Source of the DNA: Octopus vulgaris
Taxonomy: Eukaryota
Length of the DNA: 64,000 bases
Assembly (NCBI GenBank): GCA_951406725.2
Contig: OX597833.1
Location: 8,742,001 to 8,806,000 of the forward strand
Direction: 5' to 3'
Positions 31,636-42,224 of the stretch are shown here, in pieces. The notes beneath the pieces are model-generated. The model was not told the origin of the DNA. It saw only the letters and a program-made list of their open reading frames with translations, and did no database searches. Each line of letters opens with the position of its first letter. Position 1 is the first letter of the stretch. The position numbers and the translations under genes were made by a program.

Positions 31636-31677
31636 ATGGAAACAGACTTCCTTCGACAAATGGTCAACTTGACACTC
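31636..31677 (+). CDS. TPR-TIR gene copy 1, coding exon 1 (METDFLRQMVNLTL)
   Basis: gagATGG start context, 14 codons, consensus GTAAGT donor at phase 0 matching the phase-0 acceptor at 40049/40050; retained in all three units. Confidence 0.75.
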
Positions 31678-31918
31678 GTAAGTATAGAATCAATCAATCA
31701 ATCAATCAATTTATATCGGTTATTGTTCACAACTTGTTTACAACTTGACCCGGAAAAGAAAATGAGAAAAAAATACTGGAATGGGTGTAAAAAACATGTG
31801 TAGGAAACGAATATGCGGGCAAAGTAACGGGAAGGTGGGGAGAGGAACTCGGAAAATTCACAAGATCCGAGTTTCTCCTTTTTAACTTTAAGGAAAATGG
31901 GTTTTTTTTTCTATGAAA

Positions 31919-32285
31919 TCTCTCTCTCTCTAAAGCTGAAGTTGTTTGGGTGTGGCAGGTTTGGTAGCCTTCAACTAACACTATCTCCTCTGAGACCAAA
32001 ATTGAGAGTATGATAGAAGAAGGCTTGCTCTTCCATCCGTAGAAGAAAAAATTCAAATCGGACCATGTTAACACCAAAAATTATTTACACCAAAATGGTA
32101 CTTTTTTTTTCTATGAAAATCCCTATTTTTTACGATTTTTTTACTGCTGTGTCACCATTTTTCGGTGTATTTCAACCAGAAAAATGTTCACTCAAAGAGA
32201 ATAACAAGCTAAATTTTTACTTTTAAAAAAATTCTAATTCTAAAGGGTCGAAACAAACCCGAGCAACGCCGGGCGATACTGCTAG
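31919..32285 (+). mobile_element. Non-autonomous Helitron (second copy at 60557-60922)
   Basis: 5' TC; 3' hairpin cccgagcaacgccggg followed by CTAG; inserted between A and T without TSD; related empty site atgaaA|Ttttatatataaatacctttcc at ~51116-51143. Confidence 0.85.
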
Positions 32286-33535
32286 TATATTATATAAATA
32301 CCTTTCAAACTGCCTACATTACGTTACCGATTGTTCTTGTGTGAGAAAGGCCATCATAAACGGCGATGGAAGAATACAGCATGCCGGGTGTCCCTTGAAA
32401 GTGAAGCGAGGAAGTCAGGGAACTGGATGGAATGCGGACATAACAGAGAACGACTGTCCGAGGAAGCGAGTGAATTCAGCCAAATCACAGACTGAGTAAA
32501 ACTGTAAACTGACAGTGTCGCTTGAGCCCACCTTGAAGTCCAGAAATGCATGTTTTAACTAAAGCTAATACAGACATGCTACAGGTGTGAAACTGTATAT
32601 TGACGGGAAAATGTCGGGTCCTGTGAATTTTCCGAAACTCCTCTCTCTAACCCCTCGGAAATGTTTTCAAACAAATCTATTACACACACTTAATCTTCAG
32701 GATTATTTGGTGAAAGTTTAGTTAAAAAGTATCCACTTTTCTGGAAGTTACGAGGCAACAAAATCGGTGGGGTATTAAACTGTAGTTATGCCTTTGACAA
32801 TAAAAGTTACCGTAAACGGATTAACGTTAACTTTGTTACATTTTCCAAGAATTAACGGATTGGGTTAGTTTTTAGGATTTGACCCGGGTTAATGTTTACA
32901 CCTAACCACCTTTTCATATTCGTTTCCTACACTTTTTTTGACGCCCATTTCACTATTTTTTGTCTGATTTGCGTTTCCGGGTCAAGTTGTATAAATTTTC
33001 TTTTTATATGTTTGTTTCCTTTTACCCAATGTTAAAACAACGGCTAAAAACTTTCTGAAGCAGCAACCCCGACTAATTTCATCCACGAACCACCACTGGT
33101 GCCCGGTCACCAAAACAAAATAAAAAAAAACCAGTCTAATAGGTGTACAAAAAACGTGTAGGAAACAAATTATATGGAAACAATAATTTGTGCAAATGAA
33201 TAGGGTGTGGGTGGTGGTAGGGCTTTCGGAAAATTCACACAATCCGATTTTTCCCCTCTTAACTTTCAGGGAAACATTTTCCCCCGCAGATTTCTTTATA
33301 ATCGTAATCTATGCCATTTGAAAGGTGCTTCTGTAAGATTTCATCGAAAGATATCCATATTCCGCCCATTGGATGCCTGCTGAGCCCAGGGTCAGCTTCT
33401 TTACAATCCTCTGTTGTTCAGCAGCCACTCTCCACACTGCATCTTCTTAACCCACCTTGGGCCCAACATCCATTCTCAGCTTGCCAACCTGCTGGTATGT
33501 ATGTGTTTATGCATATGCAAATCCTCCACTCTTAA

Positions 33536-39199: not shown

Positions 39200-39680
39200 C
39201 GATGACTGGCATCCGTGCTAGCGGGGTGCAAAGAGCACCATCCGTGCTAGTGGGGTGCAAAGAGCACCATCCGTGCTAGCGGGGTGCAAAGAGCACCATC
39301 CGAGTGTGATCGTTGCCAGAGCAGCCAACTGGCTTCCATGCTGGTGGCACGTAAAGGGCACCATTCGAGCGTGATCGTTACCAGTGTCGCCTTACTGGCA
39401 CCTGTGCCGCCTTACTGGCACCTGTGCCGCCTTACTGGCACCTGTGCCGCCTTACTGGCACCTGTGCCGCCTTACTGGCACCTGTGCCGGTGGCACATAA
39501 AAAGCACGCACTACACTCTCGGAGGGGTTGGCGTTAGGAAAGGCATCGAGCTGTAGAAACTCTGCCAGATCAAGATTGGAGCCTGGTGCAGCCATCTGGT
39601 TCGCCAGCCCTCAGTCAAAATCGTCCAACCCATGCTAGCATGGAACACGGACGTTAAACGATGATGACGATGATGATGAC
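39200..39680 (+). mobile_element. RTE 3'-UTR fragment with 30-bp and 20-bp tandem repeats (paralog ~51870-52268)
   Basis: catccgtgctagcggggtgcaaagagcac x3; cgccttactggcacctgtgc x5 here but x1 in unit 2; (GAT)n tail. Confidence 0.8.
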
Positions 39681-40049
39681 AATTAGAAGAGGCGAAGGGA
39701 AACATGTTGTCGTTATCTTCATTGCAGGGAAAAGAAGCAGCAGGTTACATTACAAAAAGAAAAGAGAAGCAAAGTCTATTCCAGGTGGAGACCATTTCTC
39801 TCCCTTACCAGAATGTGAACATCTTTTCTTTCAATTGCTTTTACTTGCATTCTCTCTCTCTCTCTCTCTCTCTCTCTCTCTCTCTCTCTCTCTCTCTCTC
39901 TCTCCCCACCTTTACTCCTCCCCACCCCATCTATCTTCCCCTCTCCCCCTCTCATGCCCCTCTAGCAGTTAATCTCACTTGTATAATGACAATATTAATA
40001 CAGTGGGATGTAACACAGGTTTAACATTTTTTTTCTTTTCTTTACCCAG

Positions 40050-42224
40050 GACTCTGATGAAAAAATAAAATTTTACAGGATAAAAGTTGAAGAATTTCCA
40101 AACATGCTGGAAGAATGTTTTAACCTTAAAGTGAATGCACTTAAGACCAAGTTGCAAAAAGTTGAAAATGCCTTAAGAAATGAGATTTTGCTTGATTTAC
40201 AAGAAGAAATTTGCAACCAACATGCTAAAGTCTTCCTCCTTTGGACTCTACATGAGCAAATATTGGCCAAGGAAATCTCCATTGAAATACTGGGAAAAGA
40301 TCCGGATAACTTGTTGGCATTAACAAACCAAGCGTTAATGTTCGTGCATTATGAAAATTTCCCTGAAGTCGATAGAGTGCTGGACAAACTGAACGCTTTA
40401 AAAAGCAGCCCCAATTTCCCTTCATTGGAAGCGAGAGGTAAAGCTGAAATTGCCTGTTGCATTTCTAGAATATCTTTTCACCATTATCAACGTGCCATTG
40501 AACTTTTCAAAGAAGCTCTTCAGGTTTGCCCAAACAATTACTTTTGGCTTTTTCGCCTGGCTCTGCTAATTTATCGTAGGATGAGGATATTATATGATAA
40601 AGAAAAGATAGAAAAATCTTCAAAGGAAGCTACTGAAATTCTTCAAAGAATTACTTCTAATTATCCTTGTTATGTTAATGATCATCTAATGGCTAAAACT
40701 TTGGCTTTGCTAGGATCTCTTGAAAATACTGCTTTTTTCCGTTCTCGTAATTGGAGAACAATTGAATATTTCCAGAGAGCTTGTAGTATGTTTCCTCAAG
40801 ACCGATTTGTAATGGAAAAAAGTGCTACTTTCTATTTATCGATAGGTAAGTATGAAGATGCACAGAAATTGCTAGAGGAAGCCGTTAAAAGAAATGAGAC
40901 CTCACTTTCACATCATCATCTTGGTATTATTTATAAAAATCAAATTCCTGAATACAAAGATTTGTGCGTTAAAGAATTACCCTTCTCCAATTGTGAAACA
41001 CAAGAACTAAAAGAATTAAAAGTAGAAAAACGAATATTAAAATGTCCTGAGAGAATACCTGATATTGAAAGAAATGAAAATGTGGATAAGGCTGAATACC
41101 ATTTTAAAAGAGCTTACAGTCTGGATCCTCAGAATTTACATGTCATGTATGACCTAGCCTTGTTATACAGAAGTGTGCGCGAATATGAAAATGCGATGAA
41201 ATGTTTTGAAGATATTGACTTTTCAGTTTTGAACATTTGGGACACAATCAAATACTTCATTCAATATGGAAAATTTTGTTTTTTTCTGGCTGACAAAAAA
41301 GAAAGTGAAGAAGAGAAACAAGATTTAATAGATGTTGGTACAGATATGTTTGTCTGTGCCATCAATCATTTATCTGAGATTCTGGTGCTCAATAAAAGAC
41401 AGAAAAAAATTTGGGAAATCAAAAAGATAATGGAAGGAATTTATAACTTTGCTGACACCGAATACAAAAGTAATCTAATGAAATTAATTCAGTCTATAAA
41501 AGAATTGCCTGATGAGGGAGGAATTTTCCCAAAACTTCTAAAAGAATGCGGTGGAAATGAACTTTCACAAAAATTACGATTGTTATGTCGACAGGAGGAA
41601 TTTCAACAAGCTTTTCTCCATTTAGAGTTTTCTGGTTGTCAACAAAGTGAAATTGATGTAGACCTGAGGAAAACAATTTATCTTCAATATACTAAAGAGT
41701 TCTATGGAAAGAGACAGAAGGTAGCTACGATAATTTTCAAAAAATATTACAAACTTTGCTTTGGCCATTCCCAAGAATCTGAACACAAAGCAGGTACTGT
41801 TGGCTCATCAAAGATTCCTTTCTTTCAATATGATGTCTACATTTTAACATCCAAAAGTGATAATGGTGATGCTAAACATCTAGCAGAGAGTTTGGTGACA
41901 TATTTTGGATTGCAAACTAGCTACGGAGACTCTGATTTCACTCTAGGAATAGGAAAAATGGTAAATGTTAATAAAGTAATGGAAGACAGCTGCCATATTG
42001 GAATCTTTTATTCCAAGGATATTTTATCTGAAACGAAATATGCCGTGGAAATTATGAAAAACCGAAAACTGAAAACTGGAAAGATTTTTCTGATAAACAG
42101 CAATAACAGTTCTGAGATAGCCAAACATTTACAAAGTTTTCCTAATGTCGACTACAAGAACAAGAACAACATAGAACTGTTAAGACTCTTTGAATTGCTT
42201 TGTTCTTCAGAGAAAGATAGATAG
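40050..42224 (+). CDS. TPR-TIR gene copy 1, exon 2: IFIT/TTC22-like TPR protein with C-terminal TIR-like domain (~738 aa spliced)
   Basis: 706-aa ORF extended 18 codons upstream to a polypyrimidine+CAG acceptor. TPR helices (YQRAIELFKEALQVCPNN; KYEDAQKLLEEAV; KAEYHFKRAYSLDPQN). TIR-like from 41829 (YDVYILTS..D..AKHLAESL...GL...DSDFTLG...NVNKVMEDSCHIGIFYSKD). Confidence 0.88.
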   Translation, partial: DSDEKIKFYRIKVEEFPNMLEECFNLKVNALKTKLQKVENALRNEILLDLQEEICNQHAKVFLLWTLHEQILAKEISIEILGKDPDNLLALTNQALMFVHYENFPEVDRVLDKLNALKSSPNFPSLEARGKAEIACCISRISFHHYQRAIELFKEALQVCPNNYFWLFRLALLIYRRMRILYDKEKIEKSSKEATEILQRITSNYPCYVNDHLMAKTLALLGSLENTAFFRSRNWRTIEYFQRACSMFPQDRFVMEKSATFYLSIGKYEDAQKLLEEAVKRNETSLSHHHLGIIYKNQIPEYKDLCVKELPFSNCETQELKELKVEKRILKCPERIPDIERNENVDKAEYHFKRAYSLDPQNLHVMYDLALLYRSVREYENAMKCFEDIDFSVLNIWDTIKYFIQYGKFCFFLADKKESEEEKQDLIDVGTDMFVCAINHLSEILVLNKRQKKIWEIKKIMEGIYNFADTEYKSNLMKLIQSIKELPDEGGIFPKLLKECGGNELSQKLRLLCRQEEFQQAFLHLEFSGCQQSEIDVDLRKTIYLQYTKEFYGKRQKVATIIFKKYYKLCFGHSQESEHKAGTVGSSKIPFFQYDVYILTSKSDNGDAKHLAESLVTYFGLQTSYGDSDFTLGIGKMVNVNKVMEDSCHIGIFYSKDILSETKYAVEIMKNRKLKTGKIFLINSNNSSEIAKHLQSFPNVDYKNKNNIELLRLFELLCSSEKDR

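Follow-up and report, generated by a model that had tools for sequence, protein, structure and literature searches.

A 14-codon exon located 8.4 kb upstream of a single large coding exon is most likely the start of an octopus gene for a TPR-TIR protein, as judged from the DNA and from related proteins. The gene was found in a window of 64,000 nt on contig OX597833.1 of Octopus vulgaris. All positions below are numbered within this window, and the gene features lie on the + strand. Taken as a whole, we think it probable that this small exon is a first coding exon, that the TPR-TIR gene has been triplicated, and that the gene has an ancestor in common with the vertebrate IFITs and the echinoderm TTC22-like proteins, its exon layout adding little to the question of ancestry.

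Probable small first exon and splice junction

The proposed first coding exon of unit 1, the first of the three tandem copies, occupies 31636-31677 and is followed, after its 14 codons, by a GTAAGT donor (31677|31678) in phase 0. The acceptor (40049|40050) has pyrimidines at 19 of 20 positions, the top count among the 1125 AGs in 24000-46220. The intron between them (31678-40049, 8372 bp) is filled with repeats, among them a minus-strand fragment of an RTE-type LINE, and the acceptor opens a large exon of 724 codons plus stop (40050-42224). An in-frame TAA is present at 40011-40013, and the open frame has its first Met at 40104. The earlier note had listed the exon, the donor, the acceptor at 40050, the stop at 40011 and the Met at 40104, and each of them is present exactly there.

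Residues 16-17 of exon 2 correspond to a family motif, with Phe or Tyr in 42 and Pro in 46 of 59 family rows. If the conserved N-terminus is made, splicing is obligatory, because the stop lies at 40011 and no Met occurs before 40104. The exon would be a true first coding exon joined in phase 0 over the 8372-bp intron to the 724-codon exon, and the product of spliced unit 1 would be a TPR-TIR protein of 738 aa. Both the splicing and the expression of unit 1 are inferred.

P0002, an O. vulgaris protein in NCBI, begins with the unit-3 form of the exon, and the residues after it are those that follow the junction in unit 1. In P0003, a 41%-identical relative, the junction Asp is likewise preceded by exactly 14 residues. 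The P0002 junction, the P0003 leader length and the loss of the motif that would follow from a start at Met 40104 support the phase-matched upstream start that had been proposed earlier. The exon had also been called hidden, but the public model of the sister copy, P0002, already contains it.

Among 32 candidates in which an ATG lies 14 codons ahead of a GT, the exon was the best match to the P0003 leader (score 13; next 6). This similarity is weak: when the P0003 and P0004 scores were summed and Met was not required, the exon ranked 21st of 1271. Thirty-one GTRAG donors occur in 24000-40049; an in-frame ATG precedes seven of them, and the donor at 31678 alone is common to units 1 and 2. Phase-0 ATG...GT stretches are not rare (280 candidates in 24000-40049), and the exonic side of the donor (CTC) is poor. 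With a rough matrix, the donor ranked 53rd of 833 and was outscored by 20 ATG...GT candidates. Donor score by itself did not discriminate between this exon and its rivals, and was rejected as a criterion. Assignment of the exon to the upstream BEACH-WD40 gene was also rejected, that gene having its own stop near 23670.

P0002 and P0001, the O. bimaculoides model, are 92% and 89% identical to the unit 1 product, respectively, and the P0001 match covers 98% of its length. P0002, which is likely the third copy, carries private changes; it shares the exon 1-exon 2 junction with unit 1 and differs from it by a 92-aa internal gap, a frameshifted tail and an early end. The exon fixes the gene model of an intact 738-aa unit 1 protein, which was itself absent from the protein search (2 matches from 8000 candidates). 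P0001 starts at an internal Met, lacks both the leader and exon-2 residues 1-18, and appears N-terminally incomplete. Both points are routine annotation.

TPR-TIR family and TIR-like domain

By sequence similarity, the 738-aa product is placed in a TPR family that is large (264 proteins at E<=0.001), mostly molluscan and endowed with a TIR-like domain at the C-terminus. The large exon encodes a TPR superhelix, then a helical linker and a degenerate TIR-like domain at exon-2 residues 592-697 (41823-42140). The domain was matched by an echinoderm TIR profile (E 1.5e-6, Z=150), the hhalign alignment to the echinoderm group extends over the TIR region, and the UniRef name of P0001 also supports it. 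Pfam TIR gave no match in the octopus product, whose domain lies below Pfam detection, whereas the echinoderm TIR is canonical and matched by Pfam. The echinoderm proteins of the P0151 group have the same order as the octopus product, TPR and then C-terminal TIR, and share its Atlas neighbourhood: the neighbours of P0001 were two mollusc clusters and one echinoderm TPR-TIR cluster, all at 0.97. With the Atlas model of P0001 (pTM 0.54), only a mollusc cluster matched above TM 0.5.

An enzymatic (NADase) TIR is marked by a catalytic glutamate in the third helix. In the profile match an octopus Glu aligns ungapped with the invariant echinoderm Glu, hhalign gaps this region, and the neighbouring Trp and Cys are absent. 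Read by eye, P0003 appears to carry Gln at the candidate position. The chances seem to us about even that the protein is a cytosolic innate-immune sensor or adaptor, in which the TPR superhelix would bind a ligand and the TIR-like domain would relay the signal.

The same two domain types make up the molluscan "TIR-TPR" class of oyster and Aplysia immune surveys, a comparison made by name alone. The class is named in a figure legend of PMC4346834 and in an abbreviation list of PMC9334734, and those passages draw no link to IFITs. No paper describing an invertebrate IFIT-TIR link was present among the top open-licence literature matches, which is weak evidence of absence.

Homology to IFITs and echinoderm TTC22-like proteins

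The homology to IFITs is real, if distant, and comes from the protein sequence. A phmmer comparison reached IFIT1 with an E value of 1e-4 over residues 88-306, and the family profile matched the IFIT1 and IFIT5 structures at ~1e-27, collinear from the N-terminus. The TPR array is homologous to the N-terminal and central subdomains of IFIT and collinear with them. With hhalign, the IFIT alignment (E 4e-27, 99.7%, 341 columns) covered the TPR part only. This homology is matched by that to the echinoderm TTC22-like TPR-TIR proteins, for which hhalign gave E 1e-38 over 575 columns, TIR included, at ~17% identity. Scored as single sequences, the best IFIT row was slightly ahead of the best echinoderm row (47 against 44.5 bits).

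As far as these sequences tell, the trees do not favour IFIT over the echinoderm group. In both, a branch separated the mollusc-type family, with the octopus protein in it, from IFIT and the echinoderm group (SH 98; 98/96), the trees being unrooted, with long branches and only two IFIT rows. The mollusc-type family would share an ancestor with both the vertebrate IFITs and the echinoderm TTC22-like TPR-TIR proteins.

The label "TTC22-like" is one automatic NCBI name (P0185, "tetratricopeptide repeat protein 22-like"), and through this name alone is vertebrate TTC22, likewise a TPR protein, linked to the family. Of the 34 matches in a profile search for vertebrate TTC22, two were the octopus proteins, one was a bird IFIT5 and 31 were generic TPR proteins. 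A search with P0151 returned 14 proteins, of which the 10 named were all echinoderm, and no vertebrate TTC22 among them.

Gene structure compared with IFIT

The octopus gene resembles IFIT1/2/3/5 in its tandem clustering and, as far as its probable coding layout goes, in a small first coding exon and one large exon; the coding part of this layout fits by sequence and by P0002, and additional 5' UTR exons may exist. The two-exon structure that had been called IFIT-style is probable in this respect, but the intron itself differs. A passage of PMC3688568 places the mammalian IFIT intron after ATG+2 nt, in phase 2. The octopus intron follows codon 14 in phase 0, so that the first exon encodes 14 residues and not the start codon alone, and in the best register, with the N-terminus weakly aligned, it lies ~5 nt from the IFIT intron. 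The product also differs from the IFITs, which are TPR-only proteins of ~470-490 aa without a signalling domain, by ~250 extra C-terminal residues with the TIR-like domain. Since the intron is at neither the position nor the phase of IFIT, the small-exon layout adds little to the ancestry question. The exon layout is ordinary and by itself does not tie the octopus gene to the IFITs; the proposal that it gives independent support for IFIT ancestry is not supported, given the intron phase and position, and the layout is unfit as proof of such ancestry.

One explanation would restore this argument: the octopus intron may be the ancestral IFIT intron, either slid or with the N-terminus remodelled around it, and the family may be the invertebrate counterpart of IFIT and not of TTC22. 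In the best register IFIT Met1 is paired with the opening residue of exon 2, which brings the introns to the small distance given above. The octopus TPR body lies in one exon, as it does in 46 of 60 IFIT genes according to the same passage of PMC3688568, whereas vertebrate TTC22 is multi-exon and the introns of mouse Ttc22 interrupt the TPR region (PMC13693868). The octopus family profile is nearer IFIT (4e-27) than is the echinoderm profile (1.5e-13), the depths of the two profiles being different. The tree test did not reject a clade of octopus and IFIT (p-AU 0.119, on the unrooted tree with two IFIT rows), and an ISRE-like cluster lies upstream of the octopus exon. Against these points stand the difference in phase and the fish IFIT1 intron, which follows ATG alone. 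PMC3296678 describes intron sliding as rare and as a matter of debate, and the TIR domain is common to the echinoderm group and not to IFIT. Moreover, the leaders before the family motif are 4-56 residues long (median 21), so that any intron near the start codon would land near the octopus intron site. We regard a relic IFIT intron as unlikely, and prefer common ancestry of the octopus family with both groups.

Tandem triplication

The window contains a head-to-tail triplication with a unit of ~14-15 kb. The homology boundaries are at 31465, 46221 and 60102; unit 2 spans 46221-60101 and unit 3 starts at 60102. The first exon recurs at 46392-46433 in unit 2 (Q>K) and at 60273-60314 in unit 3 (D>E, the variant found in P0002), and each of the three ATGs (31636, 46392, 60273) lies 171 bp inside its boundary, in agreement with the earlier note. 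Both exon changes are non-synonymous. Non-coding divergence between units is 0.8-1.6%. The conservation of the exon in three copies is no evidence of function, because the copies are ~98-99% identical everywhere; the neutral chance of the exon being intact in both copy comparisons is 0.59-0.76, and we rejected this argument.

A 1-nt deletion near 54072 shifts the frame of the large exon of unit 2 (52604-54777) and truncates it before the TIR domain, and the large exon of unit 3 is located past the window end (64000). Unit 1 is the only visibly intact copy in the window. A recent head-to-tail triplication would have copied the gene with only 171 bp of its upstream DNA, and the second copy is frameshifted.

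One or more units may instead be silent, decaying or over-expanded assembly copies, with an ancestral junction that unit 1 no longer uses. Such a view is favored by the frameshift of unit 2, by the gapped and truncated P0002, by the codon differences between units 1 and 2, of which 24 are non-synonymous and 13 synonymous, and by the failure of the protein search to find the unit 1 protein. We nevertheless consider it improbable. The unit 1 exon is intact over 724 codons and shows the high identity to the O. bimaculoides protein described above, and separate insertions amounting to kilobases set the unit 1 intron (8372 bp) apart from that of unit 2 (6170 bp), an argument for real copies.

Upstream segment and the start of the gene

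The upstream DNA common to the three units is only the 171 bp of 31465-31635, which shows 0 substitutions and is a putative core promoter and 5' UTR. It contains a TATA-like TATAAAT at 31601-31607, 35 nt 5' of the ATG, and a cluster of GAAA/TTTC cores resembling IRF sites at 31501-31542, to which no strand is assigned. At 31501-31513 the cluster includes one match to a published ISRE consensus, and at 31527-31542 TTTC is repeated three times. In a post hoc comparison with 269 other 171-bp windows, the segment ranked top, its counts of 11 cores and 3 tandem pairs being the highest (next 10 and 2), and the ISRE consensus has 13 matches across the whole window. Vertebrate IFIT genes are characterised by ISRE motifs within ~200 bp upstream; in octopus, the ISRE-like cluster just upstream of the exon is a remaining lead from the sequence. 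As a specific promoter signal, GAAANNGAAA was rejected, being a common motif here: 3.4 matches would be expected in the window, which contains 19. No structured RNA in 24000-64000 matched Rfam at the gathering score.

The exon might be real without being the first. In that case a non-coding exon would lie upstream, its intron ending for example at the AG at 31481, the gene would have at least three exons, and the 171 bp would not be a promoter. A CAG with an A/T-rich tract (31481 in unit 1) occurs in each of the three units, a start set by the TATA-like box would give a 5' UTR just a few bases long, and the shared upstream DNA is short. However, the AG at 31481 has 11 of 20 pyrimidines, near the background mode of 9, whereas five acceptors of the upstream gene score 13-20 of 20 (three of the five placed 1-2 nt off), and the TATA-like box and the GAAA/TTTC cluster fall within the same 171-bp segment. 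The balance of this evidence makes an additional upstream exon a minor prospect. A gene with no upstream coding exon and translation from Met 40104, as annotated in P0001, is very improbable, for it removes the conserved motif, leaves the strongest acceptor of the region unexplained and disagrees with P0002, P0003 and P0004, all of which extend N-terminal of that Met.

RNA-binding residues and wider family reading

Vertebrate IFITs are antiviral proteins, characteristically inducible by interferon/IRF or dsRNA, and bind the 5' ends of RNA. The equivalents of IFIT1 K151, Y157 and R187 are kept in unit 1 as R140, Y146 and R176 of exon 2. In an alignment read by eye, those of R255, K259 and R262 are E256, T260 and L263. 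Thus two of the five residues of the basic RNA-binding channel of IFIT (K151, R187, R255, K259, R262) are kept in unit 1. Across the family rows, the equivalent of K151 is Arg in 54/59 and that of R187 Arg in 56/59, and the equivalents of K259 and R262 are Lys or Arg in 41/59 and 49/59, respectively. That is, four of the five channel positions are mostly basic in the family, and unit 1 has lost two of those four. IFIT-style binding of RNA 5' ends by the unit 1 copy seems doubtful, and the basic residues kept family-wide are the second remaining lead.

These leads may be joined into one reading, to which we give a low but appreciable probability: a large, expanded mollusc family related to IFIT would combine recognition of non-self RNA 5' ends with TIR signalling or NAD+ cleavage under IRF-type promoters, and the IFITs would be TIR-less descendants retaining a slid relic intron. 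Such a bilaterian sensor would contradict the published view, which places the origin of the IFITs with that of jawed vertebrates and interferon; the authors of PMC3688568 found no interferon homologues beyond jawed vertebrates. The unit 1 copy, with two key basic residues lost, is not the best family member to test first. If molluscan TPR-TIR proteins do bind RNA ends, they would represent an antiviral module older than interferon and a testable sensor for the molluscan response to poly(I:C) or virus.

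Gene model and evidence for the first exon

The predicted 14-codon exon 1 of unit 1, the first of three tandem TPR-TIR gene copies, lies at 31636-31677 on the + strand with a GTAAGT donor at 31678, and the large coding exon 2 lies at 40050-42224 (+). The acceptor at 40049/40050 has pyrimidines at 19 of 20 positions, the maximum over the 1125 AG dinucleotides between 24000 and 46220. Upstream, a TAA at 40011-40013 closes the exon-2 frame, in which the first Met falls at 40104. When the two exons were joined in silico, an open frame of 738 aa was obtained. Exon 1 recurs at 46392 (unit 2) and 60273 (unit 3), with a single substitution in each. 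All features quoted in the earlier note were thus found, and the splice model built on them is probably right and partly annotated already. The exon cannot be called hidden, because it is present in a public gene model for a sister copy.

The arguments originally offered for exon 1 are weak. Between 24000 and 40049 there are 280 open phase-0 ATG...GT stretches. On a rough donor matrix, the exon-1 donor ranked 53rd of 833, and 20 ATG...GT candidates scored above it. The non-coding divergence among the units is low (0.8-1.6%), so an intact exon 1 is likely under neutrality: the neutral probability that ATG, frame and donor are intact in both comparisons is 0.59-0.76. Conservation in three copies lends no support, and both exon-1 substitutions change amino acids.

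Stronger evidence comes from the proteins. Exon-2 residues 16-17 form a family motif (F/Y in 42 and P in 46 of 59 aligned relatives), which a start at 40104 would remove; an upstream coding exon is therefore needed. The NCBI O. vulgaris protein P0002 ('IFIT 1B-like') opens with the unit-3 form of the 14 residues fused to an identical exon-2 start, and its private substitutions point to the third copy. P0003, a relative 41% identical over the full length, has exactly 14 residues ahead of the junction Asp. Exon 1 matched this leader best among 32 candidates with an ATG 14 codons before GT (13 vs 6); in a looser leader test it ranked only 21st of 1271. Seven of the 31 GTRAG donors between 24000 and 40049 have an in-frame ATG, and the exon-1 donor is the only one common to units 1 and 2. 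The upstream BEACH-WD40 gene terminates at its own stop near 23670. Against exon 1, P0002 is a gene model of uncertain support that has a gap of 92 aa and is frameshifted in its tail, and the O. bimaculoides model (P0001, LOC106879869) begins at an internal Met. The P0001 model probably lacks the first exon and the first 18 exon-2 residues. Taking both sides together, we consider it very likely that 31636-31677 is a real exon.

The BEACH-WD40 gene, which we take to be NSMAF/FAN-like, is multi-exon and occupies 1-23671 (+), with a BEACH match at 4113-4691, WD-type exons near 14730, 16211, 17078 and 19970, and the last coding exon at 23565-23671.

Intron position and ancestry

The earlier note took the two-exon layout as independent support for IFIT ancestry. 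Passages of PMC3688568 describe mammalian IFIT exon 1 as ATG plus two nucleotides, with two exons in 46 of 60 IFIT genes; those of PMC11462223 give the same layout, with ATG alone in exon 1 of a fish IFIT1, and those of PMC6930875 likewise a two-exon picture. The octopus intron is in phase 0 after codon 14. The first exon-2 residue pairs with IFIT Met1 in both the MAFFT and the hhalign registers, so the distance between the two introns is about 5 nt, and their phases are not the same. This closeness is noteworthy but is not a shared intron position; intron sliding is rare and debated according to passages of PMC3296678. The leader ahead of the motif varies from 4 to 56 residues (median 21; 53 of 59 rows measured), and thus an intron near the start codon lands here whatever its ancestry.

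More telling, octopus and IFIT genes share a TPR body encoded entirely by one exon, in contrast to mouse Ttc22, in which introns lie within the TPRs (a passage of PMC13693868). Retroposition or intron loss can give rise to such bodies as well. As an independent argument for ancestry, the exon layout is unsupported.

Family relationships

The gene product belongs to the TPR-TIR family. Its closest named proteins are from Octopus (P0001, 89%, and P0002, 92% identity), and its Pfam matches are TPRs only. A cluster-representative search at E<=0.001 gave 264 proteins, 150 of them listed; the family alignment comprised the query and 59 proteins chosen as long matches (P0001 and 58 of the 150). The Atlas neighbours of P0001 were two mollusc clusters and one echinoderm TPR-TIR cluster, each at 0.97. 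The listed family (P0003-P0150) is large, mostly unnamed and molluscan by Atlas neighbours, with a degenerate C-terminal TIR in many members.

With the family profile, the structures of IFIT1 and IFIT5 were matched at about 1e-27 in an alignment that runs collinearly from the N-terminus; the single octopus sequence matched IFIT1 at E 1e-4. In profile-profile comparison, the value was 4e-27 over the TPR part against an IFIT alignment of two rows; against 12 echinoderm-type TPR-TIR proteins it was 1e-38, over 575 columns that take in the TIR. One of these 12 carries the NCBI name 'TTC22-like'. The echinoderm profile, which is also shallower, matched IFIT at 1.5e-13, more weakly than the mollusc profile did. 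Single-sequence scores were 47 and 31 bits against the two IFIT rows of the trees and 58 against a third, internally duplicated IFIT-like row, compared with 6-44.5 bits against 13 echinoderm-type rows; by these scores the two groups appear about level.

Unrooted trees of the N-terminal domain were made from hand-picked rows (45, quick; 18, careful). In both, a branch (SH 98; 98/96) separated the mollusc-type family, octopus proteins included, from a side shared by IFITs and the echinoderm group. For the unrooted 18-row tree, a clade of octopus and IFIT could not be rejected (p-AU 0.119). Vertebrate TTC22 was absent from the matches of the protein and profile searches, so common ancestry with IFIT rather than TTC22 is a candidate reading. 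In the quick tree, two unnamed proteins, P0118 and P0064, formed a loose, long-branched group with vertebrate IFITs (SH 89); they match the octopus N-domain as well as IFITs do and are possibly non-vertebrate IFIT relatives.

Passages of PMC3688568 judge invertebrate TPR matches (acorn worm, lancelet, jawless fish) to be non-IFIT; molluscs do not figure in those passages. A 'TIR-TPR' class appears in a legend and an abbreviation of oyster and Aplysia surveys (PMC4346834, PMC9334734). Among the best-ranked literature matches, no paper tied molluscan TPR-TIR proteins to IFITs.

Possible function

IFIT1 contacts phosphate through K151, R187 and R255 (a passage of PMC13197388), and K259E or R262E abolishes binding (a passage of PMC3950709). 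In a single-sequence alignment read by eye, K151/R187/R255/K259/R262 correspond to exon-2 R140/R176/E256/T260/L263. Among the 59 relatives, R occupies the first of these columns in 54 and the second in 56; the third has E in 22, the fourth K/R in 41 and the fifth R/K in 49. Four of the five positions thus stay basic in the family, compared with two in this octopus copy.

The echinoderm TIR profile matched exon-2 residues 592-697 (E 1.5e-6, Z=150), and this alignment puts a Glu at the catalytic position; a second aligner sets this region in a different register. Enzymatic animal TIRs require a catalytic Glu, according to passages of PMC7075850 and bioRxiv 10.64898/2026.04.20.719644; its presence in the octopus TIR is uncertain.

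Most likely, transcription starts in or near the 171-bp segment upstream of exon 1, and one splice within the coding region leads to a protein made of a TPR superhelix followed at the C-terminus by a TIR-like domain. Given its homology to IFITs, its TIR domain, the expansion of the family and the turnover of copies, the chance that the protein is an innate-immune sensor or adaptor seems to us roughly even. That the family is a set of IFIT-related RNA sensors older than vertebrates and coupled to TIR seems unlikely; this reading rests on family-wide protein conservation, not on exon 1.

Putative promoter segment and duplication array

The array is a head-to-tail triplication with unit boundaries at 31465, 46221 and 60102. 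The duplication took along merely 171 bp 5' of the ATG, and the sequence 5' of units 2 and 3 is the 3' flank of the preceding copy. The 171-bp segment has no substitutions among the three copies. It holds 3 tandem GAAA-N1-3-GAAA pairs and 11 GAAA/TTTC cores, compared post hoc with maxima of 2 pairs and 10 cores in 269 other windows; the TTTC triple is also present at two unrelated sites. The ISRE consensus given in a passage of PMC3688568 matches once in the segment and 13 times in the window, three of these from the copies. Since oysters carry RLR, MAVS, TBK1 and IRF genes (a passage of PMC6723221), IRF control of the putative promoter is plausible. The segment has an ISRE/IRF-site-like cluster at 31501-31542 and, at 31601, a TATA-like box. 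Because of a weak AG at 31481, an additional UTR exon is possible.

A deletion of 1 nt near 54072, within a G-rich run (54054-54094) of the unit-2 large exon (52604-54777), truncates the protein ahead of the TIR domain; it may reflect either a true pseudogene or a consensus error. The unit-3 large exon lies past the window end. The coding sequences of units 1 and 2 (40050-42224 vs 52604-54777) differ by 2.0%, more than the 1.4-1.6% seen in non-coding sequence; by eye, the amino-acid differences seem concentrated near exon-2 residues 225-310. Diversifying selection or gene conversion is a possible cause.

An intronic segment of 561 bp (32329-32886, 50375-50935 and 60966-61523), flanked by a dispersed repeat, is 97% identical, but its orientation in unit 2 is opposite to that in units 1 and 3; it is possibly a small inversion or a mobile element. 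Reverse-transcriptase fragments, presumably of an RTE-type LINE, lie at 35124-36476 (-) and 22068-22730 (-). The former is inside the unit-1 intron and has no counterpart in the portion of unit 3 that aligns, where the alignment block jumps from 34607 to 36428. A perfect 121-bp tandem repeat at 38316-38722 has about 3.4 copies in unit 1 and one in unit 2.
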